DNA from: a virus
Taxonomy: Duplodnaviria; Heunggongvirae; Uroviricota; Caudoviricetes
Strand: one strand, 5' to 3'
Virus record (IMG/VR): IMGVR_UViG_3300025392_000640
Coordinates: 37,214 to 101,213 of that record
DNA: 64,000 nucleotides
How positions within the stretch are numbered: position 1 is the stretch's first letter; every line of letters starts with the position of its first letter. Below, one piece after another: positions 2,064 through 60,440 of this stretch. The position numbers and the translations under genes are program-made. The notes under the pieces were generated by a model. The model saw only the letters and a list, made by a program, of their open reading frames with translations. It was not told the origin of the DNA and made no database searches.

Positions 2064-2096
2064 CAAAGATACAAAAAATATCCGAGCTCACCAAAT
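2064..2096 (-). promoter_or_regulatory. Bacteroidetes-type promoter (-7 TAnnTTTG / -33 TTTG) for 1687..2049
   Basis: caaagatacaaaa...accaaat on + strand, i.e. TTTGGT-N-TTTTGTATCTTTG on the coding strand. Confidence 0.55.
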
Positions 2097-2489
2097 CTAA
2101 TCCCCATAAGGGTTGCATCGATTAGAGGATATCTAACGTGGCACACGCTTTCATTGAATATTCTCTAACGTAATGGGGGCTTAGGTTGCATGGCTTCTAA
2201 ATCTATCAAAATATATACAGAAAAATTTTGCCGTCTAACAAAGAATCCTTATATGCCTGCTTTCCTATCTAATATCTTTTGTCCTAAGTCTATCAATATT
2301 AAGAAAGTGTATAAATGTGGTAGAAAGTGTGTAAAAGTGGGAACGTGATGGACATCCATTTTTTAACCTCTATTCCTATCAATATTCACTACCCTATTGG
2401 ACCGGCTTGAATAAGGGGTCTTTTTGGAGTGAATAAACATCCGTGTAAAAATATTGTAAGTGGCTTGTTAGGATACCTCTATAAGGGAT

Positions 2490-2535
2490 TCTAAGGAGCA
2501 TTAAAAAGGAGTGCGGACCGAACCCACACTCCCAT
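2490..2535 (-). terminator. Rho-independent terminator downstream of 2557..2799
   Basis: Minus-strand hairpin GGAGTGTGGGTTCGGTCCGCACTCC followed by TTTTT. Confidence 0.6.
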
Positions 2536-2556
2536 TCATTTCACCATCCCAGCTCC

Positions 2557-2799
2557 TTAAACGGATTGGATTTCTTTTGTATCGAAGTTATAAATCCAAT
2601 GCCCTACGGGTTCGGTTTGTACATCATCCATAATAAAAAACTCGTATTCCGGCTCGGGGTTAAAGATTCCGTTTTGATGATATGAAGGGTATCCCCATTC
2701 TACTAACTTAGGATGTATTGTATTCCTTATAGCATCTACATCTCTAAAATTTGTAGGGAAACTATCTAAGATTCCTTTTAAGTTTTCATTTGTTATCAT
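2557..2799 (-). CDS. hypothetical protein
   Basis: 80-aa ORF. Confidence 0.45.
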   Translation of the reverse strand: MITNENLKGILDSFPTNFRDVDAIRNTIHPKLVEWGYPSYHQNGIFNPEPEYEFFIMDDVQTEPVGHWIYNFDTKEIQSV

Positions 2800-3396
2800 A
2801 TACTTTTATTTTTGTTTTGTGTTATCCTTATCTATCTTATAGTATATCCATACCTTACCCACTATATAAAGTATTAGTACTATACATGCCATTCCAAAAT
2901 CCCATAGTAGGTTAGTCCTTTCCATTGAATCCGTTTTTATTATTCCATTCCTTTTGTATCCTCTTATCCTTTATATATCCTATTAGGTTCTTTACTACCT
3001 TATATACGATAGATAGGCTGAATACTCCCATACATACTATTACTACTATACCTATTCCCTTATACATTTAGCTGATTTTAATTCCTTTTAGTTTTTCTAT
3101 TATCTTTTGTATTATGAGTGTCCAACTTCGTTTTGATTCCGTTGGATGGACTACTTCGGTGAACGATTTGATATATTTTGACATCTTTGTATTCGTTTTA
3201 GAATTACCCTATCATTTTATCTTTTTGTTCCTTTCTTTTTTGTATCCATTCCCTAACCCATATACTAATTGCGTATCCGCTTCCTATAAAAAATATACAA
3301 GCCCATCCCATTGGCTCATTCATAAAAAACGTAGTTACATCCTTCAATTCCATTTTATAAACTATTTCGTTTTGTTGCTTTAGCGTAGAAATGAAA

Positions 3397-3594
3397 TTAT
3401 AGTGAATTTCGTTTCGTTATACTTGCTACCTTATATATCCCCTCTATTTTTCCTAACATAACTCTCCAATCCTCTATTATAACCTCTACATTACCCGATT
3501 GTGTGATATGAGCTTGATGAAATTGTTCTCTTAACTCTTTCACCGTCTTATATTCACCACTTTTAATCAATTCCTTTATTTCCTCTTTATTCAT
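3397..3594 (-). CDS. hypothetical protein
   Basis: 65-aa ORF. Confidence 0.4.
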   Translation of the reverse strand: MNKEEIKELIKSGEYKTVKELREQFHQAHITQSGNVEVIIEDWRVMLGKIEGIYKVASITKRNSL

Positions 3595-3869
3595 ACCAAA
3601 CCTTTTTACTTTAATAGCTGTTTAGGCTGGCTGTAACTCAAGCCACCATTGGATTAGCTCGTTATGAGTGGCTATTTTCTACATAATAAATACTATCAAG
3701 AAAAAATTCCCCTTCGACCCGATTGAACGATTGAGGATATAATACAAGGCTGAGGATATTATTTATATTATTTATTATCTTTGTTGTCCGAGCTTATACC
3801 TATTATAGCCAATATACATATTATTAGGTATATCCACTCGCATACCATTGTTAATACTTTCATACTATA

Positions 3870-5477
3870 TTATTTATATATTTCATCTAAGCTTTCCAAA
3901 ATATTATCTTTATACTTATCCAAAAAATCATCACAATTATCATAATGCCATTCATTCAATTGATATCTTAATATTCTATCATGCAATGCACCATTATCCG
4001 AAAAATCCATCGGCATTAAATTTTTATAGTAATTCAATCTATAAATGTCATCCTCTGTCTCTGCGTATATTTTTGGTATTATGTGTTGTAATGCCCACTT
4101 ACCCTTACCATGCCCATGATTATCCCAAGTCATCCAAGGTTCAAACATACTTTCAATATAATCCCTAAATTCATTCCATTCAATCCCTAATATATCCTTT
4201 GTTCTTTTTGTTTTTGGATTTCCCTTCAATGCCGAATGTACATACGTTTTAACCAATGCGTGCAATTTAACCATTGGATTTGTATGATAATTTAATTTAC
4301 TTTGTATTCTACCTGCTTCGTAATATATATCCCTTCTATATGTTAAAGCACATTCAATACAAATGTATGCACTTCTAAAATCATTCTCATGTTGCTCTGT
4401 CTTACACTTTCTACACCATTTGTGATTTTCTTTTGTTGGATATGGGCATATATTAGCAGACATGTATTCAAAGTAACTTATAGTATCTAATTTTATTTTT
4501 AGCTCTTCTGTCAAATATATACTACCCGGTCCATTTCGTAACCAATTATACTCATATGCCACCGGAGTTCCCGTCCAATTATTATAATTTTTGTAATCAG
4601 TACTTTCAACAAAGTCCGAAACCAATTTTACACGTTTCAACCATAAAGATTCTTTATCTAATTGTTTTTGCTTTTCTATTTTTTTTAATTCTAATTCCTT
4701 TTGTATCTTTTTTTCCGTTTCTAATTTAATATACCTACATTGTGTACACTCTTGCTCTTTTAATAAAGATGCCACCTTTCTTTTTAGTATATGTCCATTC
4801 GTACACTCATACTCTATTTTTAAACAATTTTCAGTATTATAATATTTTCTAATTATTTTTTTAATGTATGGTAGTTTTTCAACATCAATTAATTTTTGAG
4901 TATCCGTTTCAGCTTTTTTGTTTTTAATTGTATTAATATGTTCTTCTAATGATAACATCCAGTTTGGTCTACCACAATATTTTAAAATCCAATGTCTTGT
5001 TTTTTTGTATTGTTTTTTATTCAAATCCAATTTGTATAACTCATCTAAGGATGAAACTTCGTTTATAAGAACTTTATAATATTCAATCATTTCATTATGA
5101 ATTGACTCTTTTATCTTATTTTTATTTGAAATATATTCAGCTCTTTTTACAGCTCTTCTTTTTAATAGGTTTGTATGAGCACATTTATCTGAACAAAATT
5201 GTCTACCTTTTGAATTTGGATTTCCACACTCTTTACAATTTGGATTTTTTCTAGCCTTTGATGATTTTTTTGCTTTATTTAATTCTAATTGTTTTTCATG
5301 TTTACATTTATCACAAAATTTTCTAGTGCCAACAAACGCAGGGTCAGTTATTATTCTACCATTTTCCCATATCAAAGTTGCTGTTAGTTTTTCTTTACAT
5401 CTTTGACATTCTACATAAGCCCTATCCCCTACCTTTAATACGGGATGTGTTATTACTTTGTAACTTTGATTTGTCAT
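3870..5477 (-). CDS. Cysteine-rich multi-zinc-ribbon protein, function unknown (possible nucleic-acid-binding or nuclease-associated)
   Basis: 535-aa ORF with many CxxC pairs (CQRCKEK, CDKCKHE, CKECGNP, CSDKCAH, CTQCRY, CRKCKTE, CIECAL); lies directly upstream of the paralog array. Confidence 0.6.
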   Translation of the reverse strand: MTNQSYKVITHPVLKVGDRAYVECQRCKEKLTATLIWENGRIITDPAFVGTRKFCDKCKHEKQLELNKAKKSSKARKNPNCKECGNPNSKGRQFCSDKCAHTNLLKRRAVKRAEYISNKNKIKESIHNEMIEYYKVLINEVSSLDELYKLDLNKKQYKKTRHWILKYCGRPNWMLSLEEHINTIKNKKAETDTQKLIDVEKLPYIKKIIRKYYNTENCLKIEYECTNGHILKRKVASLLKEQECTQCRYIKLETEKKIQKELELKKIEKQKQLDKESLWLKRVKLVSDFVESTDYKNYNNWTGTPVAYEYNWLRNGPGSIYLTEELKIKLDTISYFEYMSANICPYPTKENHKWCRKCKTEQHENDFRSAYICIECALTYRRDIYYEAGRIQSKLNYHTNPMVKLHALVKTYVHSALKGNPKTKRTKDILGIEWNEFRDYIESMFEPWMTWDNHGHGKGKWALQHIIPKIYAETEDDIYRLNYYKNLMPMDFSDNGALHDRILRYQLNEWHYDNCDDFLDKYKDNILESLDEIYK

Positions 5478-5770
5478 ACAATTACATATTTTTCTTTTAT
5501 ATAAATTAATTGGTCTCTCATTTTATCCAATGTATCAATTGTTTTAATCCTTACAAATTCTGTCATTGCTCCTTTTTTATAACCTATAAACATTCGATAT
5601 AAAGGATACCTATTATGTATATTGTTTACTACCTGCCTATCTAATTCTATATTACTATTGTCCGATAACCAAATTGAATAAGCATCACCTATTTCAGCTA
5701 TTCCAATAACCGTCAGGCCATCCTTTAATACCAATCCTTCCAGCTTCTTATAGTTTTGTATTGTTAGCAT
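5474..5770 (-). CDS. MLTI(K/E)NI-family paralog 1 (hypothetical)
   Basis: N-terminus MLTIQNYKKLEG; ~100 aa; member of tandem array. Confidence 0.6.
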   Translation of the reverse strand: MLTIQNYKKLEGLVLKDGLTVIGIAEIGDAYSIWLSDNSNIELDRQVVNNIHNRYPLYRMFIGYKKGAMTEFVRIKTIDTLDKMRDQLIYIKEKYVIV

Positions 5771-6036
5771 TTCATTAAATATTTTATTCTATCCCTTACA
5801 ATATGTGGCGTTTTCAAATCTTTTAGGGTTAGGTAGTCCGATTTGTTATTTAATTTTAATCGATATTTCCCTTTAGCAGTTCCTATCCTATTCAATTGGG
5901 CTATTATTACATTTGAATTACTTATATTCTTTAAGTGAAAAAAATATACATCAGGTGTACCAATTACAAATTCGACACGATACCGCCTACCAACATATTT
6001 TTTATTAATCTTTTGTATGTTCTCTATTATGAGCAT
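5764..6036 (-). CDS. MLTI(K/E)NI-family paralog 2
   Basis: MLIIENIQKINKK. Confidence 0.55.
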   Translation of the reverse strand: MLIIENIQKINKKYVGRRYRVEFVIGTPDVYFFHLKNISNSNVIIAQLNRIGTAKGKYRLKLNNKSDYLTLKDLKTPHIVRDRIKYLMKC

Positions 6037-6341
6037 ATCATTCCCGTTTGTATATGTAATTCTAATATAAAATTCTTTAATGTCAAATTTGATAACTTTA
6101 CATAAACATCTTGTTGCAGGTTTTCTGATGTCATTACATATCCCCTTCTATTCAATAAAGCCCTATGTAATTTATATACAATAACATCCTTTATACTTGC
6201 CACATTGTTTTCTAATAAAGGAAACACTCCAAATGTATAATGTAAACCTTCATTCTTAGCTATACCAATTATGAATTTTTGTCCACTACTTAATTTGAAC
6301 TCTTGTCCTTCTATATTTGTAAAGTTTTTTATTGTTAGCAT
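6027..6341 (-). CDS. MLTI(K/E)NI-family paralog 3
   Basis: MLTIKNFTNIEGQ. Confidence 0.6.
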   Translation of the reverse strand: MLTIKNFTNIEGQEFKLSSGQKFIIGIAKNEGLHYTFGVFPLLENNVASIKDVIVYKLHRALLNRRGYVMTSENLQQDVYVKLSNLTLKNFILELHIQTGMICS

Positions 6342-6343
6342 AA

Positions 6344-6664
6344 TTATTCAATTGACATTACTCTTTCAATACAATATATAAAAGTGTTCTTATCTTTTAT
6401 TTGCTCATAACTTAATAACATACATTTTCTATCAGTATCCTCATCCCACAATATATACCCATCATAGCCAGATGCAAACCTAGTTTTAAATCTATTCAAT
6501 ACTAATCGAATATCGCTATGTGTTTTATTTACATGTCTTATATGTAAATGATATTGCTCGTTACCCTGTTGAGTCCACATCCATATATTATATACATAAT
6601 AGTTTCCTGTTGGTATTGTTAATCTTTGATTGATTAATGTATGTGTATTTTCTATTGTTAGCAT
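6344..6664 (-). CDS. MLTI(K/E)NI-family paralog 4
   Basis: Track ORF 6344..6676 begins MHYNMLTIEN; start adjusted to the conserved MLTIENTHTLINQ. Confidence 0.55.
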   Translation of the reverse strand: MLTIENTHTLINQRLTIPTGNYYVYNIWMWTQQGNEQYHLHIRHVNKTHSDIRLVLNRFKTRFASGYDGYILWDEDTDRKCMLLSYEQIKDKNTFIYCIERVMSIE

Positions 6665-6665
6665 A

Positions 6666-6977
6666 TTATAGTGCATTTAAGTACATTTGTAATATTTCCA
6701 TAAACTCAATTGGATTTTTCATTGCGGTTTTATATAAAAATGTAGATTTGCTTCCAAATTTTCTTAATTGATATAGTGTAGTTTCAGGTGCTATGTTATC
6801 GAATGGTGCTTTCTTTCTAGTAAGTAAAACTATAATTGGAGCATGTACTGTCCCAATATCTTTAATTACTATTCTATATTCGTTTGGTGATGTCAAAACA
6901 TTCCCTATAACAAAAGTATATCCTTTTATTGTTATAGCTTTATGTATTAGTATTTCTATGTTTTGTATTGTTAGCAT
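6666..6977 (-). CDS. MLTI(K/E)NI-family paralog 5
   Basis: MLTIQNIEILIHK. Confidence 0.6.
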   Translation of the reverse strand: MLTIQNIEILIHKAITIKGYTFVIGNVLTSPNEYRIVIKDIGTVHAPIIVLLTRKKAPFDNIAPETTLYQLRKFGSKSTFLYKTAMKNPIEFMEILQMYLNAL

Positions 6978-7146
6978 ATATTAGTTTTTCCAATCACCAC
7001 TCCTTAATAGGTTTGTTATATAATCCATTGATTGTAGCGTTGTCAAAAATACAGGAGCTGGATATTCCTTGCCTTTGTATATTACTTTTGTTGGCTGCCA
7101 TACTAAACTACCATTATCTAATTCCAATTTATTCATATCATTTGTT

Positions 7147-7449
7147 TTATCCACATACTGCCTCTAACCAATATAAAGTACTACCAATACTCCTTAACTC
7201 TTCTGTGGATACATACCTTGCAGTTTGTGATGTATGTAATTTATAGTAATCTTTGTTTTCTACATTTCCACTATTTTTTGGGGTATCAATAATTCTGTCC
7301 AAATATATTGTTCTAAACATACTTCCGTGTTTTAAATAAAATTGATATTGCTTCCCACCATAATCAGTAGTTCCTATAATTTTCCAATCAAGTCTTTTTA
7401 TAGTTACTACTTGCCCTTCTATATTTTTTATGTTTTCTATTGTTAGCAT
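7147..7449 (-). CDS. MLTI(K/E)NI-family paralog 6
   Basis: MLTIENIKNIEGQ. Confidence 0.6.
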   Translation of the reverse strand: MLTIENIKNIEGQVVTIKRLDWKIIGTTDYGGKQYQFYLKHGSMFRTIYLDRIIDTPKNSGNVENKDYYKLHTSQTARYVSTEELRSIGSTLYWLEAVCG

Positions 7450-7769
7450 CCTTCAATTACTCTTAACATTGGTCCAATTAATGATTTCGGTTCTTTTAAA
7501 TGATTTATGTCTATTAATCTACTCTTATTAGTTATTATGTTTTTCAATTCGTATATGTGCATATCATCCCATTTAGTAGCATGTGTTCTACTCAAATTGA
7601 TTACAGCTTCCCTCAATAATCCGCCGGCAGGATGTGCTTCAATACATCTAAATACAAATTGATACAAATCACTAGCCGTTTGTATATTACTTAATTCCCA
7701 TTTTTCACCAGCTACTCTTAATGATTTTGCTAATGGACTTATATTATTTATGTTTTCTATTGTTAGCAT
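7443..7769 (-). CDS. MLTI(K/E)NI-family paralog 7
   Basis: MLTIENINNISPL. Confidence 0.6.
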   Translation of the reverse strand: MLTIENINNISPLAKSLRVAGEKWELSNIQTASDLYQFVFRCIEAHPAGGLLREAVINLSRTHATKWDDMHIYELKNIITNKSRLIDINHLKEPKSLIGPMLRVIEGC

Positions 7770-7770
7770 A

Positions 7771-8094
7771 TTATTTTTTTATATAACAATTCTCTAATTG
7801 TCCACCTAACATACCAGGAAACATTTTCAAATCTAATAAACCTTTTGTTAGTGTTACATAATTAGTATTTTGGTCATTATACATTCGCCATTCATTTTCT
7901 GTATCAATTGTGTATCTTAATAACTTAAACAATACCCACTTCGGATGCTTTAAAAAAGGTATAAGGCCATAATTATATTTTACTCTAATAATATAATCAT
8001 TCCTTCGTTCCTCTATACCCATAACTACCCATCTTGCTTTCGTAGTGTGTAAGGGCGTTCCGTCTAGCTTTTGTATGTTCTCTATTTTTAACAT
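7771..8094 (-). CDS. MLTI(K/E)NI-family paralog 8
   Basis: MLKIENIQKLDGT. Confidence 0.6.
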   Translation of the reverse strand: MLKIENIQKLDGTPLHTTKARWVVMGIEERRNDYIIRVKYNYGLIPFLKHPKWVLFKLLRYTIDTENEWRMYNDQNTNYVTLTKGLLDLKMFPGMLGGQLENCYIKK

Positions 8095-8408
8095 GGCATT
8101 ATACTTCTTAATGTGTTCAACATTTTATCCCTAGTCTTAATAGACTTTTTATCCAATGTAGCCCTAATCGATGCTGAACCCCTATCACTCATAGAAGTAG
8201 TAGCATACCCATCTTTGTCTATTCTACTCAATTCTATAATTACCCACTCATCATCAAATATACCAAGCTTTCTATTTACTAATATTTGATATGCTGTTTC
8301 AAATTCTTTTACATTTTGTACTGTCCAATGTTTTCGTTCCACTACATTGTTTACATCTGTTACGAATCCCTTACCAATCAATTTATCTATATTCTTTATT
8401 GTTAGCAT
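8088..8408 (-). CDS. MLTI(K/E)NI-family paralog 9
   Basis: MLTIKNIDKLIGKG. Confidence 0.6.
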   Translation of the reverse strand: MLTIKNIDKLIGKGFVTDVNNVVERKHWTVQNVKEFETAYQILVNRKLGIFDDEWVIIELSRIDKDGYATTSMSDRGSASIRATLDKKSIKTRDKMLNTLRSIMPC

Positions 8409-8409
8409 A

Positions 8410-8703
8410 CTATTCGTTTAACATTTTATCAATTAACTCTCCTATCATATAAGGCTCTATTTGATGTAAACTTACCCATCTATTTATTTTACTTTGCTCA
8501 AAATCTTTATACAATCTATAAACAGGTTCGTTTCTACCACTTACATATGTACTCTCTCTATTCAAATAAAATGTTGTAACCATACTGCCTATAAGAACTG
8601 AAAATGCATATAAATATTCTAATTCAGTTACCGCACCTATACGCCAATTGTTAATAGATGAACCTACATTTACTATCGTATCTATATTTTTTATTGTTAG
8701 CAT
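8410..8703 (-). CDS. MLTI(K/E)NI-family paralog 10
   Basis: MLTIKNIDTIVNVG. Confidence 0.6.
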   Translation of the reverse strand: MLTIKNIDTIVNVGSSINNWRIGAVTELEYLYAFSVLIGSMVTTFYLNRESTYVSGRNEPVYRLYKDFEQSKINRWVSLHQIEPYMIGELIDKMLNE

Positions 8704-8704
8704 A

Positions 8705-9028
8705 TTATGTATTTAGCTCTTGTTCGATTACTTCTAATAAGTTTGTAATATCTTTTAACCTTTCAAAATCAAAATATCGGTAGTTATTAGTATTAGTATG
8801 TTTAAAATAATATACATTGTTTCTTCCACTTATACCTTGTAATATTCTACCCAATAAAAATATATTAGTTACATTAACAGCTGAATGTATGGATGGCCTA
8901 CTTACTACAAACATATATTCTGGTATCAGTGCATTATTATTCGTTTCCATAACATTATCAATTTTCCAATTATATACATTGCTATAATTTAATTGTGTTA
9001 TTTTTTCTATGTTCTTTATTGTCAACAT
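8705..9028 (-). CDS. MLTI(K/E)NI-family paralog 11
   Basis: MLTIKNIEKITQL. Confidence 0.6.
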   Translation of the reverse strand: MLTIKNIEKITQLNYSNVYNWKIDNVMETNNNALIPEYMFVVSRPSIHSAVNVTNIFLLGRILQGISGRNNVYYFKHTNTNNYRYFDFERLKDITNLLEVIEQELNT

Positions 9029-9369
9029 TATAATATAAATTCTATTGCGTGGATTAACTTACCCATCGTATCCATTAAACTAATATCCAAATACAAAGTA
9101 CGACCGTGTGTATATGGACTCTGATAGATTTCATATTTACCGTCCATCTGCTCCCTATTCAAAACTATCATTGTAGTTGCGGATACTTTTTTATGTTGAT
9201 TAAATGTCATTGGGTCATAAAGGGTATTAAACTTAGCCAAATTTATTTCATATGCAGCAAATCCTCTTTCATTATTTTCATTAACATCAACGACTTCCCA
9301 GCTACGCTCCCAATGTGGCTGTGTAAATTGATGTCCAATTAATTTATCTATATTCTTTATTGTTAGCAT
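9028..9369 (-). CDS. MLTI(K/E)NI-family paralog 12
   Basis: MLTIKNIDKLIGHQ. Confidence 0.6.
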   Translation of the reverse strand: MLTIKNIDKLIGHQFTQPHWERSWEVVDVNENNERGFAAYEINLAKFNTLYDPMTFNQHKKVSATTMIVLNREQMDGKYEIYQSPYTHGRTLYLDISLMDTMGKLIHAIEFIL

Positions 9370-10905: not shown

Positions 10906-10940
10906 AAAAAGGAGCGTTTAACTGCTCCTTTTATTCGATT
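10906..10940. terminator. Bidirectional rho-independent terminator (downstream of 11006..11503)
   Basis: aaaaaaggagcgtttaactgctccttttatt: GC stem flanked by an A-run and a T-run. Confidence 0.6.
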
Positions 10941-11503: not shown

Positions 11504-11699
11504 ATGCTAATCCCAATAATTCAGTTTGAAGTTCTTGAAAATGCTTTTGTCTTTCAACTTCAGCTTTGAATTTATCCGGCGTTAATTCACTCAACTCAAC
11601 AATATCAAAATGCTGTGTTGGTATTGTAAACACTTGGTATCCACTATTTGTTTTACGAATAGTAATTCCATCCTCAATCCATTCTTTAAGATTTTCCAT
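11448..11699 (-). CDS. hypothetical protein
   Basis: 83-aa ORF. Confidence 0.4.
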   Translation of the reverse strand: MENLKEWIEDGITIRKTNSGYQVFTIPTQHFDIVELSELTPDKFKAEVERQKHFQELQTELLGLAFGKRVEEGLFDDLFEKMD

Positions 11700-19371: not shown

Positions 19372-19374
19372 AAC

Positions 19375-19776: not shown

Positions 19777-19782
19777 AACTTT

Positions 19783-29251: not shown

Positions 29252-29275
29252 AATTCTTAATTTTTATTATACCCA

Positions 29276-46250: not shown

Positions 46251-46258
46251 TTATATTG

Positions 46259-46350: not shown

Positions 46351-46384
46351 ACAAATATACGATAATTTTTTCAAACTACCAAAT
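46351..46384 (-). promoter_or_regulatory. Bacteroidetes-type promoter immediately upstream of tRNA-Glu and the downstream tRNA block
   Basis: acaaatatacgataattttttcaaactaccaaat. Confidence 0.55.
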
Positions 46385-48014: not shown

Positions 48015-48086
48015 TAGAAGTGGAGAATTATGATATCCCGTCCTCTTGGATGTAAGCCAAGCGCTCTCCCTCTGAGCTACACTTCT
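48015..48086 (-). tRNA. tRNA-Val (UAC) with non-canonical T-loop
   Basis: Perfect acceptor AGAAGTG/CACTTCT, D-arm GCTC-AGAGGGA-GAGC, anticodon loop CTTACAT; T-loop ATCATAA lacks TTC. Confidence 0.6.
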
Positions 48087-50337: not shown

Positions 50338-50431
50338 CTTTTTTAAGTCATTGAAAATCAATGAGTTATAAACATAGGATTTATAAGTATATGTAAATAT
50401 ACAAAAAGTATCCGAATTTACAAAATTTATT

Positions 50432-51133
50432 TTACTTATTTTTTGAAAGCATTGCTACCAATGATGTAGCTGCTTTTTTAACAGGACTTTTATCATCATA
50501 TTTCAAAGCGGATGTCACTTTGATATCTTTACCTGTAATTGGATTTCTAACTGTTTTGTTAGCTATATCCTTTGGTAACGATGATGCTAATTTAGCCATA
50601 TCAGGTTGTTTTGCTTTTTGCCCAACACCTCTCTTAAATGTAAATGTACTCTTAGGTCCACTTTTCATTTTAGAATAAGCCTGTTGAATTGTATCAGGAT
50701 GCATTTTACCCATATTTTCGGTATGGCCATCTCTATATAATAAGAAAGCGTTTCCCTTTGTTTGTTCACCAGCATATAATACTGAATCTTGTCCGTATTT
50801 ATTACCAAGTTCATGTGCATCTTTAATACTGATATTAGGAACAAAGAAAGATTCTTCGATACTATCTTTTAATTTTTCTTCAGGACATTGTGCATAATTC
50901 ATATTAGAATCCGTACATTCTCTCCATCTTCCTTCAACTTTAAAGAAACCAAGTCCTTTACCTCTAAGGTCAGATTCCAATTTCTTATTAAGTTCTCTAT
51001 TTTCCTTTGGAGTGTTCAAATATCTAAATGCAGTCATCATCGCCCAACTTGTAGTATTCTTTTGCTGTTGTACGTGTTGATATACTCTACTTAAAGAGGC
51101 TTCATCTAAATTATGTATTTTACAATTTCCCAT
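50432..51133 (-). CDS. hypothetical protein
   Basis: 233-aa ORF. Confidence 0.5.
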   Translation of the reverse strand: MGNCKIHNLDEASLSRVYQHVQQQKNTTSWAMMTAFRYLNTPKENRELNKKLESDLRGKGLGFFKVEGRWRECTDSNMNYAQCPEEKLKDSIEESFFVPNISIKDAHELGNKYGQDSVLYAGEQTKGNAFLLYRDGHTENMGKMHPDTIQQAYSKMKSGPKSTFTFKRGVGQKAKQPDMAKLASSLPKDIANKTVRNPITGKDIKVTSALKYDDKSPVKKAATSLVAMLSKNK

Positions 51134-51341
51134 CTATTATCTGATATAAATATAAAGTTTCTTGAGTTTCGATAATACTTCTTATTTTTTGTAATCTATC
51201 CTTTATTCCATTGATTCTTTCCATAGTAGACCACATACCCATATTATTCACTGGTTTATAGCTTTCCCAATACTCTAATGCTTCCATTAGTTCGGATTCT
51301 TCTATTTCCAGTTGTTGTATGTAAAATTCTTTAGGATTCAT
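51120..51341 (-). CDS. hypothetical protein
   Basis: 73-aa ORF. Confidence 0.45.
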   Translation of the reverse strand: MNPKEFYIQQLEIEESELMEALEYWESYKPVNNMGMWSTMERINGIKDRLQKIRSIIETQETLYLYQIIDGKL

Positions 51342-51345
51342 CTAT

Positions 51346-51379
51346 ACAAATATACGAAAAATATAGGAATTTACCAAAT
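51346..51379 (-). promoter_or_regulatory. Bacteroidetes-type promoter for 51120..51341
   Basis: acaaatatacgaaaaatataggaatttaccaaat. Confidence 0.55.
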
Positions 51380-51646
51380 CTAATCCCCAATCAGATTGTT
51401 TTCCTCTTTTTGGATTTTATTTAAACGCTTCGTAAGTAAAAAGTAAGATATAAAAAAAGATGCCGAGATAGAATAGAATACGATATCTGCTATCCAATAC
51501 GAACCTGTTAGATTCATTATTAGTTTGAATAGGGCATCGTAGCCAAACGGCAGAAAGAACATCGCCAACATCAGTGATGTATCTTTGAATAACATTAATC
51601 GGGTCTCCTTCGTCTGGAGTTGCTTGAATTTCTTTTGTACTATCAC
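51380..51646 (-). CDS. small membrane protein (alternative overlapping frame 51417..51656 exists)
   Basis: 88-aa hydrophobic ORF. Confidence 0.35.
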   Translation of the reverse strand: MIVQKKFKQLQTKETRLMLFKDTSLMLAMFFLPFGYDALFKLIMNLTGSYWIADIVFYSISASFFISYFLLTKRLNKIQKEENNLIGD

Positions 51647-52627: not shown

Positions 52628-53254
52628 TTATATTTTGGGGAATAAAATGTTTTCCATAAAGTACTTAGCCTTATCTTCTCCAATTAAAGCTTTTAATGCT
52701 GAGAATGTTCTTGGATTAGTGGCCTGTATTGTACAATATTGATTTTGTTTCTCTATAATAGCTTCTTCATCGCCTTTCCTTTCCAACCAAAGTAAAGAAT
52801 TTAGATACCATTCGTATTTTTCCAACACCCATTTTTTAAATTCCAAAAATTCTTCCACACTTTCAGGTGCCATCATTATAAATCTATCACTAAATACAGT
52901 TGCCCATTGTGGTATAGGTTTGCGATTACCAATATTCATTCCATCATCAAATGGGTATTGATTAATACCGGGGCTTAAATCCATATATGCCCCAGTAATT
53001 TTTTTACCAGTGGTTATCACATCAAACCCAAAGATAGGTTCAGGAGACCACTTATGCGGAAAGGTAGTAAAGTGTAATACCTCTATCTTAGAATCCGAAT
53101 ATCTTTCAACATGCGCCATTCTGAATAAATCGGATGAAAATCTATGATTAGTCCAACCATAGTTTTCAGTTTCCATAGGTTCTAAACCCGGCGCTGTTGT
53201 AACTAAATCTAATAGCTCTTGTGCTATTGTATCTAACATTACTTTATTGTCCAT
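52628..53254 (-). CDS. Ferredoxin-dependent bilin reductase family protein (PcyA/PebA-like)
   Basis: FRMAHVE, VLHFTTFP, PIFGFDVI and AYMDLSP align with the conserved PcyA core motifs FRKMHLE, ILHCVMFP, PLFGCDIV and AIADLSP. Confidence 0.75.
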   Translation of the reverse strand: MDNKVMLDTIAQELLDLVTTAPGLEPMETENYGWTNHRFSSDLFRMAHVERYSDSKIEVLHFTTFPHKWSPEPIFGFDVITTGKKITGAYMDLSPGINQYPFDDGMNIGNRKPIPQWATVFSDRFIMMAPESVEEFLEFKKWVLEKYEWYLNSLLWLERKGDEEAIIEKQNQYCTIQATNPRTFSALKALIGEDKAKYFMENILFPKI

Positions 53255-53783
53255 CTATAATTGTTTGTAATTCATCAAAAATAGCCATATTAAAATCCAA
53301 TCCTTTATTAGCCTCATCAGCCCATTCATCTTTTTGGATTGCTCTAATAGTTCCAGCTACTTCTCTCATATCACCATCAAAGGTATATAATCTTCCACTA
53401 CCAGGCACATTCTTCTTCATCATTTGTCCACCAAACATAATAGCTAAGTAGTTCAAATAAATGTGAGGAAGTATATCTTCATCTGAAAGTCCTTTAAGGT
53501 AATCGCAATATGATTGTGTTGATTCTAATAATTGAATCTCTAATACCTGCCCTTCTTCTGCTTCAAATAATTCTTTAATATCTTCGTAAACCGCATCTAC
53601 TCTATTTAGTGATGGATGTGGTAGGGTTCTACTTTTTTCAATTGCATCAAATATTCCTAATTGTTGGCAAAGATGCGCAATATATTCTTCTTTAGTTAAT
53701 TCACCTTTAAACATTCTTTGGTTAAAAGGCTTTTGTTCAGCTTCTCTATGCTTATCGGCAATTGCTTCTTTAAGTGGTAACAT
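53244..53783 (-). CDS. ho1: Heme oxygenase
   Basis: LPLKEAIADKHREAEQKPFNQRMFKGELTKEEYIAHL and HIYLNYLAIMFGGQMMKK match the HO-1 family helices. Confidence 0.8.
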   Translation of the reverse strand: MLPLKEAIADKHREAEQKPFNQRMFKGELTKEEYIAHLCQQLGIFDAIEKSRTLPHPSLNRVDAVYEDIKELFEAEEGQVLEIQLLESTQSYCDYLKGLSDEDILPHIYLNYLAIMFGGQMMKKNVPGSGRLYTFDGDMREVAGTIRAIQKDEWADEANKGLDFNMAIFDELQTIIDGQ

Positions 53784-54274: not shown

Positions 54275-54616
54275 TTAATTTTTCCAAATAACTTGTATTC
54301 CAACTATGCAAGCTGCCAATCCAATACAAATCAAAGTTTTTAATGTAAATGGTTCTTTAAACATTACCCAACTCATTGTACTGAAAGTAATAATACCAAT
54401 TCCAAATCCAATCAATCGGGATGGCCATAATTCACCACCATAATAATCAACTATATTAGTTACTGATTGAATGAACAACCACAATCCTAACATAGCAGTT
54501 AGATATACCAACCAAGGATATTGTTTATTCCATCCATATTTTACACTACCTTGCAATTGTAGGAAAGATAATATCTGTCCAGCCAAACCCCATAACATTC
54601 CGTATATTAATTTCAT
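54275..54616 (-). CDS. multi-pass membrane protein
   Basis: Track ORF 54275..54652 trimmed to the internal Met downstream of the promoter; 3-4 TM helices. Confidence 0.45.
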   Translation of the reverse strand: MKLIYGMLWGLAGQILSFLQLQGSVKYGWNKQYPWLVYLTAMLGLWLFIQSVTNIVDYYGGELWPSRLIGFGIGIITFSTMSWVMFKEPFTLKTLICIGLAACIVGIQVIWKN

Positions 54617-54621: not shown

Positions 54622-54653
54622 CAAAGATACGAAAAATATCTGATATTACCAAA
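54622..54653 (-). promoter_or_regulatory. Bacteroidetes-type promoter (variant -33)
   Basis: caaagatacgaaaaatatctgatattaccaaag. Confidence 0.5.
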
Positions 54654-55248
54654 GTTTATTTCCACCAAATCCACTACTTCCACTAATACCAGGTCCCGGC
54701 GAATATCCAGTTGGTTTAGAATAATGGGATGGACGTCTAACAATATCTTGCATTCTACTAATAAAGGATAGAATATCTCTTGTTACCGAATCACTACTTA
54801 AACCATTAGCTATTGTTTGTATAAAAATAGATGGATTAGATAAATGATTTTTAGTTATCGTAGTATTCAAATCATATGGTGTCATTTTATCATCATACTT
54901 TGGTGGTGGGAGTATCTTAATGTGCATATCCATATCATCGGTAAATAGGGTAACTCTTGAAAAAGGTTCTTTATCATCAATAGGGTGTACCCAAGCCGTA
55001 TATACATTACCTTCATCAATGTAATCAACATGAGTATGCATTATGATAAAACTAGCTCCCATCACATCAAATTTAGTACCAACTAATTTATCCCAATTTG
55101 ATATCTCTACAGTTTTTTTCTCATTCATATTTTTTTCTTTACCAATAGCATCGGCAAGTACACATGCTAAATGATTACCACCTATTAGGTACTCAATATC
55201 TACATCATATGTATCCTTACCGCAATATGTACAAATTACTTCTTTCAT
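54646..55248 (-). CDS. hypothetical protein
   Basis: 200-aa ORF. Confidence 0.45.
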   Translation of the reverse strand: MKEVICTYCGKDTYDVDIEYLIGGNHLACVLADAIGKEKNMNEKKTVEISNWDKLVGTKFDVMGASFIIMHTHVDYIDEGNVYTAWVHPIDDKEPFSRVTLFTDDMDMHIKILPPPKYDDKMTPYDLNTTITKNHLSNPSIFIQTIANGLSSDSVTRDILSFISRMQDIVRRPSHYSKPTGYSPGPGISGSSGFGGNKLW

Positions 55249-55852: not shown

Positions 55853-57109
55853 TTAGTATCTATTGAATCCAATTGTTGGTCTACCTTTATCTTCACTCTT
55901 ATACTCAACCTCAGCCAAGTTATATATCTCCGTTAGGGTCATTGGTTTTGTAACTGTGTACTCATAACCCAAATGATTAACTAATGCTTGAGAATCTTCT
56001 ATTGGTAACGCCTCAAACTTATGTTCTGCAATCAATCTTCCTTTTCTTAGGAGGGCCTCATCAATCTTAGCTTTATCCATATTGAATGTTGCTACAATCT
56101 GAATGTTTAAGATATCACTTAAGATACCATCCGTAATGTTAAGGATATTTGATACTCCGTTACCACCACCATTTTGTCTATCCGTAATTACTCTTTCCGC
56201 ATCTTCAATGAATAGTACCGAACCTGCGTTTTGAATTAAGAATGGTGTCATCTCAGGCGATGTGATGAAATCTGCTAAGAATGGTGGAATGAATAGTACT
56301 CTTTTATTCTTAATCTTAGATGCTAAGTACTTTAAGTAGTGAGTCTTTCCAGTGCCAGGCGTTCCGTGCAATAGTACTAACCCTTTACTCTTAGGTTCAT
56401 TTAACTTATGTATAATCTTTTCGTGAATTGGTTTGAATGATTTACCATATCCCAATTCAATATCCAACTTCTGCTTTGGTAACTCAAAGGTTGTTGTATC
56501 ATAACCTCTATTTGTTTGTATTACTAAGGCAATATTGTTTTCTTTCTCTCTACGTTTTTTAGCCAACCCAGAGAATTGTTCTGTTACTTCATTAAAATCT
56601 TTTGGTGATGCATTTCCAGATAAACTAACATTAATACCTCTATCACTTCTATATGATTTCGTAACTGATGCTCCCCACTTCTTAGCAATACTATCTACCA
56701 TTAATAAGATAATACCATCCTTACATACTTTCTCAAATACTTTGTTTTGGAAATGACCGGAAGTCATATACATTTCCTTATTGAATATCTCAACAAATCC
56801 CAACTTAGGAATAAGTTCTAATGTAGGTTCTTGCTTAACTTGAAACTCATCTGAAATTCTAAAGTATGAAGATGCTGCTCTACCTGTTTTATTAGTTATG
56901 TACATACCAATTGGAAAATCATCGTAATCTGATGGCTTGTATGGTTGACCTGTTGTTACATTTGAGTTACCATCCGATGTCGAATCATTCATAATACTTT
57001 CTCTGATTGCTAACTTAACCTCATGCGGAAGGACTTCCAAATCATCCAATTCTAATAATGTTTCCAATTCCGATTCCGTCAATTTTCTAGGTGTTATTGG
57101 TTTCCCCAT
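55853..57109 (-). CDS. AAA+ ATPase
   Basis: Walker A LLHGTPGTGKTHYL and Walker B VLFIEDAE; ~200-aa N-terminal domain of unknown function. Confidence 0.75.
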   Translation of the reverse strand: MGKPITPRKLTESELETLLELDDLEVLPHEVKLAIRESIMNDSTSDGNSNVTTGQPYKPSDYDDFPIGMYITNKTGRAASSYFRISDEFQVKQEPTLELIPKLGFVEIFNKEMYMTSGHFQNKVFEKVCKDGIILLMVDSIAKKWGASVTKSYRSDRGINVSLSGNASPKDFNEVTEQFSGLAKKRREKENNIALVIQTNRGYDTTTFELPKQKLDIELGYGKSFKPIHEKIIHKLNEPKSKGLVLLHGTPGTGKTHYLKYLASKIKNKRVLFIPPFLADFITSPEMTPFLIQNAGSVLFIEDAERVITDRQNGGGNGVSNILNITDGILSDILNIQIVATFNMDKAKIDEALLRKGRLIAEHKFEALPIEDSQALVNHLGYEYTVTKPMTLTEIYNLAEVEYKSEDKGRPTIGFNRY

Positions 57110-57127: not shown

Positions 57128-57160
57128 TTACAAATATACGATTAATTTCCAATTCCACCA
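57128..57160 (-). promoter_or_regulatory. Bacteroidetes-type promoter for the AAA+ gene; hairpin terminator at about 57163-57200
   Basis: acaaatatacgattaatttccaattccaccaaat. Confidence 0.55.
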
Positions 57161-57264
57161 AATAAAAAACTCCCTAATTTTATTATTAGAGAGTCTTTTT
57201 TTAAGTGTGTTTTAGATGTATTCCTTTTTTCTGATTTTGTTTTCTTGTAGCTTTAGCCATTCGA

Positions 57265-57486
57265 TTACGATTGTGTTTTTTGGATTCTTTCTTTGTCATT
57301 GTTACGAAGTTTTTTATTAAACCTATAACCCCTTACCAATTCACCAATCGATAATTTTAGAATAACATATATGTACCAAATCGTTACTATTGGTAACATA
57401 AATATAAGTATGCCTCCCAATATTATATGTGCTAAAACCTTTATTCCCATTTCTATTAAAGTGCAAATGATTCTCCACATCCACAT
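57265..57486 (-). CDS. small membrane protein
   Basis: 73-aa hydrophobic ORF. Confidence 0.35.
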   Translation of the reverse strand: MWMWRIICTLIEMGIKVLAHIILGGILIFMLPIVTIWYIYVILKLSIGELVRGYRFNKKLRNNDKERIQKTQS

Positions 57487-57788
57487 GTCCTACTAGCGTT
57501 TGGATTTTCCCATTGAAACCCTCTACCATTTAATCCATCCGAATAGGTAAGCTCAGTACCATATAAGTAAAGTACCGATTTTCTATCTATAACTACCTTC
57601 AATCCACCATCTACTTCTACAACTTCATCTGTAGGTTCTATCTTATCATCAAAATCCATTGTGTAAGATAATCCACTACAACCACCACCCTTAACACCCA
57701 CTCTTAGGTGATGTGTATCTGGCGTTATACCACCTTCCATCATAAGGGCTATAACATGGTTAAGTGCCTTTTCTGATAGAGTTACCAT
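57456..57788 (-). CDS. iscA: A-type Fe-S cluster carrier (IscA/HesB/SufA family)
   Basis: VGVKGGGCSGLSY and C-terminal CGCGESF. Confidence 0.85.
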   Translation of the reverse strand: MVTLSEKALNHVIALMMEGGITPDTHHLRVGVKGGGCSGLSYTMDFDDKIEPTDEVVEVDGGLKVVIDRKSVLYLYGTELTYSDGLNGRGFQWENPNASRTCGCGESFAL

Positions 57789-57789
57789 A

Positions 57790-58108: not shown

Positions 58109-58297
58109 TTATTTGTTATTAAACTTTTGTTCCTTATAAATTGCGTTAAGTACTTCCTTTCTTCTCTTTACAGAAGGTTTGGTAAATACTTGCCTATCTC
58201 TTAATTCTCTAACTACCCCTATCTTATTGTGTTTGTTTTTATACACCTTAAGGGCTTGTTCTATTGAGTTAAACTTTGTTGTATCTACTATTATCAT
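58109..58297 (-). CDS. hypothetical protein
   Basis: 62-aa ORF. Confidence 0.35.
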   Translation of the reverse strand: MIIVDTTKFNSIEQALKVYKNKHNKIGVVRELRDRQVFTKPSVKRRKEVLNAIYKEQKFNNK

Positions 58298-58704
58298 ACG
58301 TGCTTATCTTCAAATGTTAAAGGTTCTAATCCGTTCTTAGTTCTATAATCATTGATTGCTGCTTTGATAGCATCCTCAGCAAGTACCGAACAATGAATCT
58401 TAACGGGAGGTAAACATAACTCCTCAACTAAATCCATATTATCAATAGTTACGGCTTCATCTAAACTCTTTCCTTTCAACCATTCAGTTGCTAAAGAACT
58501 AGCTGCGATTGCCGAACCACATCCAAAGGTTTTGAACTTAGCATCCGTAATGATGTTATCCTCAACTTGGATTTGTAATCTCATCACATCACCACATTCA
58601 GGTGCTCCTACTAAGCCCGTACCTACATTTGGTTTACTTTTATCCAATGTTCCTACATTCTTAGGATTCTCATAATGTCCAATTACTTTTTCACTATACG
58701 CCAT
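58294..58704 (-). CDS. iscU: Fe-S cluster assembly scaffold IscU/NifU-like
   Basis: GAPECGDVMRL, FKTFGCGSAIAASS and PPVKIHCSVLAEDAI. Confidence 0.9.
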   Translation of the reverse strand: MAYSEKVIGHYENPKNVGTLDKSKPNVGTGLVGAPECGDVMRLQIQVEDNIITDAKFKTFGCGSAIAASSLATEWLKGKSLDEAVTIDNMDLVEELCLPPVKIHCSVLAEDAIKAAINDYRTKNGLEPLTFEDKHV

Positions 58705-58854
58705 AGTTTATTGTTTTTGATTTTTATAATATTCATATATTCCAATTCCCATTGTTAGTATGATGGCTTGTATTTTTAATAGTAGTAGTTTCATACCTAT
58801 AATTATTACTATCAAAAATTTTTAACCTACGACTCCCCCAAAGGGGTTCGTTCA

Positions 58855-59049
58855 CTAATCTCCGAATAGGTTTATACTAGCTAAACTCACTCCACCCTTA
58901 CCATCATCTGCGAATAGTTGTAATTCACCTGTTTGGGGATTAAACATTTTACGCTGAAGTAACTTTTTATCGGTTTCATCCAACGATTGAGATACTAATG
59001 CTCTATTTAGTTTTTCGAGTTCTTCTAACTGCTTTGGGTCTAATATCAT
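58855..59049 (-). CDS. hypothetical protein
   Basis: 64-aa ORF. Confidence 0.35.
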   Translation of the reverse strand: MILDPKQLEELEKLNRALVSQSLDETDKKLLQRKMFNPQTGELQLFADDGKGGVSLASINLFGD

Positions 59050-59380
59050 CTTTTGGTTTTTCTGAATATTCTTTAAGTAACTTAATACGATGTGCTAATT
59101 CGTATTCTTCTGTCTCTACTGCCCATTCCATCATCATATCTAAACTTTCAACTAAATCATCTTTCCTAATTTTAGTGTTTAAGATAGTTCTTCCAACTTT
59201 CTCTTTAACTACTATTTTGAAAGCATCAAGTTCCTCCAATCTTTTATAAACAAGCTCCTCAGATGCTGCCACAATCTCTCCCATTAGCATAGGTTTGTTT
59301 GTTTCCATCCAATCGGAAAGATTGGTAGCATCGACTTTAAACTCTAATATCTCTCTTTCTCCTTCCATTATTATTTCCAA
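59003..59380 (-). CDS. hypothetical protein
   Basis: 125-aa ORF. Confidence 0.45.
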   Translation of the reverse strand: MEIIMEGEREILEFKVDATNLSDWMETNKPMLMGEIVAASEELVYKRLEELDAFKIVVKEKVGRTILNTKIRKDDLVESLDMMMEWAVETEEYELAHRIKLLKEYSEKPKDDIRPKAVRRTRKTK

Positions 59381-59748
59381 ATAGGTTCGATGTATAAATT
59401 AACCTCATAAAGGTCTTTATATCCACTTTCCATTGGCTCGATACCATCGATTCTCCACTGCATCTTCTCAAAGAAGATTTTACCGCCCAATGTGTAACAA
59501 GGGCCACCTTCAAAATCAAACAAGGTGATATCACCATGCTTATTTGTAGATTTACGGATGAATTGTGATTCACCTAATACTCTTACTTTATTCAAATGAA
59601 TCCTTTCAATTGAACGCTCTAATCCATAACGGCTTTTTACGATTTCCATAATTAGCTTTTGTTGTTTTTGTTGTTTATAATTGTGTTTACTAATTCCTTT
59701 TCTTCCAATGATAAATGCTGATAAAATTCGGTATCTAAAGTTACCCAA
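59371..59748 (-). CDS. hypothetical protein
   Basis: 125-aa ORF. Confidence 0.45.
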   Translation of the reverse strand: MGNFRYRILSAFIIGRKGISKHNYKQQKQQKLIMEIVKSRYGLERSIERIHLNKVRVLGESQFIRKSTNKHGDITLFDFEGGPCYTLGGKIFFEKMQWRIDGIEPMESGYKDLYEVNLYIEPIWK

Positions 59749-59861
59749 CTTCTACTTTCTTCCATTATTGGTAATCCACTATCATCACAAGGCATTACTC
59801 CCAATGGACCTGCCCAGCAGTTAATAGATTCCAATTTAATAAATTTTTCCATACTCTATGT

Positions 59862-60380
59862 TTACAGTAAATATTCCAAACCTTTAGTATTTGGTTTTTT
59901 TAACTGTATATCTATTATTGATTGTGGCGTTTTTACTTTACTATTCTTTTGATACCACCAATATAAGTCCTCTAAAGTCCCCTTTCCTCTCTGTCTTTCC
60001 ATAGCTTTATCCCACAAATCTTGTCCGAACTCCTTCTTTAGTTCCATTTGTAGTTTAAATAGGGTTATATACTCTTCCCGGCCTGCTTCTAACTCCAATT
60101 TAATAGCCTTTAACCTTTTCATCCTACCAGCTTCTAATGCCACTTGTTTCCTATTAGATTCATCCGTACCACCATAGTTCTTATAGGTTATATTATATTC
60201 ATGCTTAGCGGCCTCTCTCATTTGAACAGCCTCATTAAACATATATGAATAATCAAAGTCACCATTACGAATTTTTAGTAATAGTGGTGCGTCTGCTTTT
60301 AGTGGTTTGTTTGGTCTTCCTTTTGTCCACCATCTGAATTTGTTGTAGCTCATTTCTATTAGCTTTAATAGCCTTAACAA
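59862..60380 (-). CDS. hypothetical protein
   Basis: 172-aa ORF. Confidence 0.5.
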   Translation of the reverse strand: MLRLLKLIEMSYNKFRWWTKGRPNKPLKADAPLLLKIRNGDFDYSYMFNEAVQMREAAKHEYNITYKNYGGTDESNRKQVALEAGRMKRLKAIKLELEAGREEYITLFKLQMELKKEFGQDLWDKAMERQRGKGTLEDLYWWYQKNSKVKTPQSIIDIQLKKPNTKGLEYLL

Positions 60381-60407
60381 TGGCTGTTATTAAATAATGA
60401 TTCATAA

Positions 60408-60440
60408 CAAAGATACTATTAATTTCTCAATCTACCAAAT
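60408..60440 (-). promoter_or_regulatory. Bacteroidetes-type promoter for 59862..60380
   Basis: caaagatactattaatttctcaatctaccaaat. Confidence 0.5.

Follow-up and report, generated by a model that had tools for sequence, protein, structure and literature searches.

Genome context and gene content of the window

We analyzed a repeated, promoter-like element in a 64,000-nucleotide (nt) stretch of viral DNA, positions 37,214 to 101,213 of IMG/VR record IMGVR_UViG_3300025392_000640 (here called the window), which represents a single-strand accessory region of a 209-kb uncultivated phage. The window is 99.99 to 100% identical to metagenome contigs, the longest of which is k141_118880 of ENA ERZ27271960, at 209,353 bp. 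When projected onto this contig (L241), the window overruns the contig end, suggesting that the assembly is probably circularly permuted or is a complete genome with another start point. The G+C content is about 31%, and the minus strand holds all plausible genes and all 25 to 26 tRNA genes. Gene calls are rough and leave 11% of the window noncoding. The metabolic and cofactor genes encode GTP cyclohydrolase I, IscU, IscA, a heme oxygenase together with a bilin reductase, and two tryptophan halogenases; protein synthesis and folding are represented by ribosomal protein bS21, GroES, and a cyclophilin, and the nucleic acid enzymes comprise DNA ligase, RNA ligase, and kinase and phosphatase repair enzymes. 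Methyltransferases and many orphans are also present. A megablast search of 20 kb of the window against cultured phages returned tRNA genes as its sole matches, and tblastn searches with the DNA ligase and AAA ATPase found only distant T4-like and jumbo phage relatives, implying that the phage has no cultured relative. Three other loci, L077, L081 (from a 238-kb contig), and L118, are true relatives of the window.

A long bipartite element recurs on the coding strand

The element has the consensus (A)TTTGGT-N15-TCGTAT(C/A)TTT(G/A), the two ends of which are referred to below as the -33 element (TTTG) and the -7 box. Allowing up to two mismatches, the 13-mer TTTCGTATCTTTG has 25 matches where 3.4 would be expected, a number that none of the shuffles attained. 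Among the 17 minus-strand matches to CGTATNTTT, 16 share a far longer word in perfect register, consisting of an A-rich stretch, ATTTGGT(A/G)GATTC, 9 to 10 variable bases, and T(T/A)TCGTAT(C/A)TTT(G/A). A weight matrix, as proposed beforehand in a sequence-only reading of this DNA, was built from 16 seed copies and gave a full window set of 21 sites, every one of them on the minus strand: 19 are strong (score of 26 or more) and 2 are weak (14.6 and 9.8), and the top score among 30 shuffles was 11.3. A matrix-independent repeat finder returned the same copies as its largest families (D1 to D3 and D8). Likewise, the generic pattern TTTG-N18-21-TAnnTTTG has 14 minus-strand matches, all 14 of them in the motif set, versus a single plus-strand match. 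The sequence-only reading had described about 20 copies on the coding (minus) strand between positions 2064 and 60440; the number and strand agree with our set, and the span is exact, with outermost copies at 2064-2096 and 60408-60440. The 21 copies, with distances given downstream of the -7 box, are as follows.

60408-60440, minus strand: P60417, in which TAG replaces TCG before the -7 box; score, 44.0; the ATG is 54 nt on (gene 59862-60353)
57131-57163, minus strand: P57140; the ATG of the AAA ATPase gene 55853-57109 is 21 nt on
54622-54654, minus strand: P54631; the ATG of the membrane-protein gene 54275-54616 is 5 nt past the box
51347-51379, minus strand: P51356; the ATG of gene 51120-51341 is 5 nt past the box
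50394-50426, minus strand: P50403, degenerate (TTTTG, TTG-TATATTTA); score, 32 to 40; first of a tandem pair before tRNA-Met
50305-50337, minus strand: P50314, with an A-tract upstream, 34 nt before tRNA-Met (50198-50270); predicted start at 50291/50290
50157-50189, minus strand: P50166, a TTTA variant; the predicted start at 50152/50151 is the 5' end of a small RNA
50012-50044, minus strand: P50021, a TTTA variant, followed by a unit of about 70 nt and then the next promoter
49901-49933, minus strand: P49910, a TTTA variant; predicted start near 49896, at the 5' end of the GOLLD locus
46352-46384, minus strand: P46361, 21 nt before tRNA-Glu (46258-46330) and the tRNAs that follow; orthologous copy in L081
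44458-44490, minus strand: P44467; the ATG of gene 44179-44436 is 21 nt on
38556-38588, minus strand: P38565, overlapping the last codons of a SET-domain gene; the ATG of gene 38229-38534 is 21 nt on
38067-38099, minus strand: P38076, weaker (score, 26.5), with GCTTG at -33 and a box ending in TTTA; gene 37799-38044 is 22 nt on
34250-34282, minus strand: P34259, weak, with box TAGTTTTA and a score of about 13 to 15; gene 33937-34230 is 19 nt on
30493-30525, minus strand: P30502; gene 29860-30471, a putative HExxH metallopeptidase (subthreshold match), is 21 nt on; predicted start at 30479/30478
29274-29306, minus strand: P29283, weak, with box TAGTTTTG and a score of about 10 to 11; gene 28901-29251 is 22 nt on
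26525-26557, minus strand: P26534; the ATG of gene 25734-26504 is 20 nt on
23885-23917, minus strand: P23894, a TTTA variant with an A-tract; gene 23484-23861 is 23 nt on; orthologous copy in L077
16946-16978, minus strand: P16955; gene 16486-16917 is 28 nt on; orthologous copies in L077 and L081
10872-10904, minus strand: P10881; a 45-codon open reading frame (ORF) is 16 nt on, and a terminator hairpin (10907-10932) adjoins the -33 element
2064-2096, minus strand: P2073, in which TTG replaces TCG; gene 1687-2037 is 26 nt on

The spacing between the -33 element and the -7 box is exactly 20 nt in all 21 copies. TTTG is present at -33 in 19 of them, and the box reads TAHHTTTG in 13 copies and TAHHTTTA in 6; G is absent from both variable positions of the box in the 19 strong copies and occupies the first variable position in the 2 weak ones. 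The motif carries 38.3 bits of information over 42 columns, of which the canonical positions account for only 13.0 bits, and conservation is also high in the spacer (GGTrGATTC) and in the TCG before the box. Three groups can be recognized within the set: strong copies before protein genes, which form the majority; copies before stable RNAs, which have an A-tract of 6 to 7 nt directly upstream and often end in TTTA; and three weak copies.

The copies are largely intergenic (at least 17 of 21; binomial P ≤ 3e-13), the overlap of the others being confined to the final codons of a gene or to a doubtful short ORF. Equal abundance inside coding regions, which the sequence-only reading had named as an outcome that would count against the motif, is not seen. 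In agreement with the claim that copies sit just upstream of start codons, 12 genes have their ATG 16 to 28 nt past the end of the -7 box and 2 more (54275-54616 and 51120-51341) have it at 5 nt, within an overall range of 5 to 54 nt; the corresponding distance to a tRNA is 21 nt for tRNA-Glu and 34 nt for tRNA-Met. In Flavobacterium johnsoniae, transcription starts 4 to 5 nt past the -7 box (PMC6847099), and given this rule and boxes only 5 nt from the ATG, the mRNAs of 54275-54616 and 51120-51341 may be leaderless. As had been noticed, the motif contains the starts of at least three mechanically called ORFs (26525, GTG; 44460, TTG; 54652, TTG), and a copy does precede the tRNA block at 46351. 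An array first counted as four-fold is real and has five copies (50403, 50314, 50166, 50021, and 49910). The label ImmA-like, given to one of the downstream genes, is backed only by subthreshold metallopeptidase matches.

A terminator-like hairpin (-15.9 kcal/mol) adjoins the -33 element of P57140. The idea that the copies are promoter-plus-terminator cassettes was considered and abandoned, being true only of P57140 and P10881, and terminator-like sites in the window as a whole do not exceed the shuffle expectation. We recognized no second promoter type in the 64-kb accessory region. The T4 late motif TATAAATA is not enriched (8 minus-strand copies against 13.9 expected), and two of its three gene-proximal copies are merely the sequence that follows a -7 box. 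Three further copies of the element lie in the 18 kb flanking the window. In the relatives, the motif is kept at orthologous positions in three of five comparisons, and in the other two the promoter is lost with the downstream gene conserved.

The element has the architecture of a Bacteroidota housekeeping promoter

The promoter recognized by the housekeeping sigma factor of Bacteroidota consists of a -33 TTTG (or TTG) and, some 19 to 21 nt downstream, a -7 TAnnTTTG, the latter refined to TAHHTTTG (PMC6847099). The -33 and -7 words, the 20-nt spacing, the strand, and the position of the window copies all conform to this arrangement, as the sequence-only reading had proposed in assigning them to the Bacteroidetes primary sigma factor. 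A scan of genomes with the pattern ATTTGGT-N15-TCGTATMTTTG found at least 120 loci, and among the matches listed, which are mainly Bacteroidales, 75 of 80 belong to Bacteroidota (Prevotella, other Bacteroidales, Alistipes, and Saprospiraceae). In these bacterial loci the extended element precedes ordinary genes, with a tRNA gene following in 10 of 122 cases and a 16S gene once; the extended words TTTGGTGGATTC...TCGTATCTTTG, in particular, precede tRNA genes in Bacteroidales chromosomes. Unselected TTTG/TAnnTTTG sites in the Bacteroidota loci have a spacer of 20 nt in 59 cases, 19 nt in 28, and 21 nt in 11. They favor A before TTTG, G after it, T-15, G-13, and C at the second variable position of the box, preferences that can be written as the words aTTTGg and t.gTA.cTTTG.

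Other expression signals in the window point the same way. Sigma-70 hexamers are not enriched there (84 versus 87, 118 versus 122, and 124 versus 131 expected). Only 6% of window genes have a Shine-Dalgarno-like word, compared with 8.7% of random positions, and start codons are instead preceded by a run of A (68 to 75% A at -12 to -10), an arrangement that matches the Bacteroidetes type of translation signal. Phages with predicted Bacteroidetes hosts have been reported to encode bS21, as this one does (PMC9723584). With promoter, translation signal, and bS21 in agreement, the prediction that the host belongs to Bacteroidota, also made in the sequence-only reading, is well supported by these sequence features.

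The extension of the motif is not specific to the phage

Two parts of the sequence-only reading are not supported as stated: that the copies define a phage transcription class and that the extended -7 region is phage specific. The extended pattern occurs in Bacteroidota chromosomes, including the 10 sites before tRNAs, and a looser version of it, TTTGGT-N15-TCGTATMTTT, matched at least 120 further viral stretches, including many without relation to the phage. Of the stretches matched, 38 have two or more weight-matrix sites, and these sites are strand coherent (12 to 0 in L070 and 11 to 0 in L073). In unrelated viral contigs the copies lie 17 to 28 nt before start codons and include the same spacer words, for example TTTGGTAGATTC. 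The preferences of the motif fade from this phage to other viral contigs and from these to bacterial chromosomes. What is peculiar to the phage is thus the degree of uniformity of the motif and not its extension. As a separate observation, a phage tmRNA (88.8 bits) in one of the viral stretches (L049, 2353-2780) begins 11 nt after a motif copy.

The array of copies precedes tRNA-Met, a candidate small RNA, and GOLLD

The five array copies stand before stable RNAs: P50403 and P50314 before tRNA-Met, P50166 before a small RNA, P50021 before a unit of about 70 nt, and P49910 before a GOLLD RNA, about 660 nt upstream of its conserved core. The two RNAs other than tRNA are as follows.

48947-49895 (5' limit predicted), minus strand: GOLLD RNA (full-length match to Rfam RF02032; 304.8 bits, E = 3.7e-87), with its conserved 3' domain at 48947-49361
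50152-50076, minus strand: candidate small RNA with a three-way junction, 77 nt, with the layout P1-UGAAGCCA-P2-UAAUAAAACCGA loop-GUGA-P3-AAAGCCGG-P1'

GOLLD is known to occur near phage tRNA islands (PMC12286853). The position of P49910 suggests that the variable 5' domain of the RNA would extend up to a predicted start site at about 49895. No GOLLD was found in the first loci selected by motif, which gave only promoter-to-promoter matches; a scan with the GOLLD core itself yielded 58 viral loci. In 31 of the 38 distinct loci with enough upstream sequence, the pattern TTG-N19-21-TAHHTTTG lies 580 to 765 nt upstream on the GOLLD strand, compared with counts of 2 for the reverse strand and 0 for a control segment, and several of these loci have two to five tandem promoter copies, as in the window. 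Judged by its sequence context, GOLLD here has its own predicted promoters. A tRNA at 48015-48086 (minus strand; 51.9 bits with Rfam) was missed by ARAGORN, and a degenerate tRNA-like copy (48870-48939, minus strand; 22 bits), resembling tRNA-Gly(ACC), directly follows GOLLD.

The small RNA motif is present in at least 119 viral stretches (including L294, L303, L304, and L305 onwards). In 90 unique instances, parsed by pattern, two helices covary strongly: helix P2 is paired in every one, with eight pair combinations, and helix P1 has a mean of 9.4 uninterrupted pairs over 30 different sequences, against a mean of 4.1 for mismatched partners. The motif matched no Rfam 15 family and no cultured-phage record, and a literature search for its loop sequence was without a match. 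In 15 instances it follows a tRNA, which is tRNA-Met(CAT) every time. In 41 instances it precedes a gene with a Shine-Dalgarno site, implying that the small RNA also occurs in phages of other hosts.

Taken as one joint proposal, which we advance tentatively and regard as possible, if somewhat short of probable, the copies would delimit a cluster of independently transcribed stable RNAs, with P50166 starting transcription at the base of the small RNA; this GOLLD subfamily would belong to phages of Bacteroidota and have a defined 5' end; and the Bacteroidota sigma factor would generally make an "extended -7" contact through the conserved T-15 C-14 G-13.

Palindromes lie upstream of the weak copies

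A palindrome, TAACnnnTTGAnnnTCAAnnnGTTA, recurs in the window at the following positions.

38122-38221, no strand: three 25-bp palindromes TAACnnnTTGAnnnTCAAnnnGTTA, upstream of P38076
Centers at 1012, 1062, 1141, 1190, 23943, 29342, and 29391, no strand: TAACnnnTTGAnnnTCAAnnnGTTA palindromes from a pattern search
Centers at 34307, 34356, 38134, 38183, 38209, 50064, and 50356, no strand: the remaining TAACnnnTTGAnnnTCAAnnnGTTA palindromes from the pattern search

Its core has 15 copies in the window, against 2.3 expected. Each of the weak promoter copies (P29283, P34259, and P38076) has two or three palindromes upstream, the center of the proximal one lying 26 to 37 nt upstream of the -33 element and the next one 49 bp further; P34259 and P29283 each have two, 49 bp apart, and P23894 has one upstream. 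The palindrome is found, in the same arrangement, in 12 related viral loci and not once in about 0.9 Mb of bacterial loci. It is therefore the palindrome, and not the promoter extension, that is the phage-lineage-specific element, and it is probably an operator for a phage regulator. Short repeats of CCCTAAAAT, CCCCAAAAT, and CCCTTAAAAT, about 20 nt apart, occupy 34390-34475 and 29400-29495 (minus strand), with a G/C-rich hairpin adjoining; they lie on the upstream side of the palindromes that precede the two weakest promoters and have an iteron-like look.

Probable recognition by the host RNA polymerase

Overall, the copies are, with high probability, near-consensus promoters for the host polymerase carrying the Bacteroidota housekeeping sigma factor. 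According to this reading, host RNA polymerase with a sigma factor of the sigma-ABfr type would recognize the copies, region 4 of the sigma factor binding the -33 TTTG(GT) and region 2 binding the -7 TAT(C/A)TTT(G/A). Transcription would then start 4 to 5 nt past the box and about 15 nt before the start codon, giving leaders of about 15 nt. The upstream A-tract, the GT after TTTG, a T/C near -26/-25, and T-15 C-14 G-13 may provide extra polymerase contacts, which would make these very strong promoters able to outcompete those of the host, as T4 early promoters do in Escherichia coli. The copies would split the single-strand accessory region into short units, and tandem copies would drive the stable RNAs: tRNA-Met, the small structured RNA, GOLLD, and the tRNA island.

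What is observed is the architecture, position, strand, conservation, and taxonomic distribution of the copies; that polymerase recognizes them, and where, how strongly, and when they would start transcription, we infer. Several points weigh against this reading. Beyond the canonical elements the copies have about 25 bits in common, a larger amount than contacts with polymerase would require, and this surplus suggests that their similarity may stem partly from duplication or recombination of copies or from binding of a phage factor. The box ends in TTTA in six copies, while G-5 is nearly invariant in F. johnsoniae, and the two weak copies have G at -10, which almost never occurs in that species. 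The sequence read amounts to 82 of 209 kb, leaving room for a phage sigma factor elsewhere, and the taxonomic count given above for the matches listed may depend on scan order.

Some of these points bear on a different view of the copies, namely, that they are primarily mobile regulatory cassettes, resembling the promoter-early stem-loop elements (PeSLs) of T4-type phages, through which recombination shuffles accessory genes, with a promoter role that is only partial. The copies do lie in an accessory region crowded with short orphan genes; they are more alike (38 bits) than a canonical promoter needs (13 bits); some pairs also have flanks in common, as at 2054-2106 and 51337-51389, where 53 nt are 81% identical; the copies of the array hardly differ from one another; and the loss of the promoter beside a conserved downstream gene in two of five orthologous comparisons fits such mobility. 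The stem-loop that defines these cassettes is, however, mostly missing, an abutting terminator hairpin being found at only 2 of the 21 copies, and the lack of enrichment of terminator-like sites argues in the same direction. We consider it unlikely that mobility is the primary role, and the view would in any case supplement promoter function rather than replace it.

A reader encoded by the phage is less likely still. That the extended motif marks a distinct phage transcription class, read by a sigma factor or polymerase of the phage or by a factor that retargets the host sigma factor, would account for the strong conservation of GGTrGATTC and TCG outside the canonical elements and for the same spacer words in unrelated viral contigs, and it draws on the partial coverage of the genome mentioned above. 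Against it, the extended TTTGGTGGATTC...TCGTATCTTTG pattern precedes host tRNA genes in Bacteroidales chromosomes, which is what makes this reading improbable; in addition, unselected host sites have the same preferences, and a search of the window genes (Pfam on nearly all genes of at least 60 amino acids, PHROGs on ten promoter-adjacent genes) found no sigma factor, RNA polymerase, or known transcription or appropriation factor. Neither a sigma factor nor a polymerase was called in the two flanking stretches, about 18 kb together. Least credible of all is a function other than that of a promoter, whether as a generic AT-rich repeat or as an array of replication, packaging, or repressor sites. 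Such a reading is suggested by the AT richness of the genome and by TAnnTTTG alone, which is equally common on the two strands (69 plus-strand and 64 minus-strand occurrences), but the full bipartite element is exclusive to one strand, intergenic, and at a fixed distance from start codons and RNA genes, and it agrees with an established promoter consensus and persists at orthologous positions. The reading of the copies as host-type promoters can be set beside several known systems.

Comparison with known promoters

The sigma-ABfr promoters of Bacteroidota (Bayley 2000; Chen 2007; Baez 2019, PMC6847099) have the same elements, spacing, AT-rich upstream sequence, and position relative to genes as the phage copies. 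Uniformity is much greater among the phage copies, whose spacer is always 20 nt and which carry about 25 bits more, and their -33 element is strong, whereas that of F. johnsoniae promoters is weak. Unlike Bacteroidota sites, the phage copies favor TCG before the box and TA, not CA, after it.

T4 early promoters have been described as "uber" UP/-35/TGn/-10 promoters that match all host recognition elements and add further consensus positions (Hinton 2010, PMC2988021). In both phages, many near-perfect copies of a host-type promoter, with an upstream A/T element, precede small accessory genes and tRNAs; the sigma family and the consensus differ, and the likeness drawn here is one of sequence only. 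The PeSL cassettes of the T4-type phages RB49 and phi1 place dozens of strong host-like promoters upstream of orphan genes (Arbiol 2010, PMC2839356). The window copies resemble them in being repeated, probably strong, host-like promoters with AT-rich upstream sequence, located before orphan genes in hyperplastic regions, and differ from them in that most lack the G/C-rich stem-loop terminator. A promoter of a Bacteroides fragilis phage, PBfP1E6, is described, as cited in PMC11554821, as the strongest constitutive part in Bacteroides toolkits. It likewise appears from that description, rather than from its sequence, to be a phage promoter used by a Bacteroidota polymerase, at a very high level in the case of PBfP1E6, and it is described as coming from a gut Bacteroides phage, of another lineage than this phage.

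The use of many host-type promoter copies by a large phage is an ordinary, known strategy; what is new is this instance. It allows a phylum assignment, to Bacteroidota, from sequence alone for a 209-kb phage and for many related viral contigs, and those who work with Flavobacteriia and Bacteroidia gain a natural set of about 20 promoters that are probably very strong and include graded variants. Several gene starts have been corrected. What appears to be host derived (the promoter and most of its extension) can be told apart from the upstream palindrome, which is specific to the phage lineage, and the tRNAs, GOLLD, and the small RNA emerge as putative separate transcription units. By-products of the analysis are a candidate new RNA family, a candidate operator, and the GOLLD promoters, and the predicted 5' ends of GOLLD and of the new small RNA should make expression and function easier to test.

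Other features of the accessory region

A tandem family of at least a dozen paralogous ORFs of about 100 codons occupies 5474-9369 (minus strand) and continues past the window start (L243, 9700-13500); most members begin MLTI(K/E/Q)NI, none has a Pfam match, and no promoter copies lie inside the family. The heme oxygenase gene (53244-53783) and a gene for a ferredoxin-dependent bilin reductase (52628-53254) adjoin on the minus strand. This gene pair is usually linked with cyanophages, and here it stands beside Bacteroidota-type expression signals. The bS21 gene (58109-58297, minus strand) lies near genes for IscU-like (58294-58704) and IscA-like (57456-57788) proteins, a setting unlike that reported for bS21 phages of lake Bacteroidetes, where the context is one of structural genes.

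Beside the tRNA island there is a set of RNA and DNA repair genes (18047-20436, 21692-22855, 25270-25734, and 46779-47321, minus strand) encoding an RNA ligase (weak Rnl1-type match), a kinase, a phosphoesterase, a DNA ligase, a cyclic-phosphate receiver, and HAD "Swiss Army Knife" domains, which suggests a defense against host tRNA nucleases. The two tryptophan-halogenase genes (11686-13173 and 39003-40514, minus strand; Pfam E values of 1e-113 and 1e-94) are diverged from each other and are unusual in a phage.

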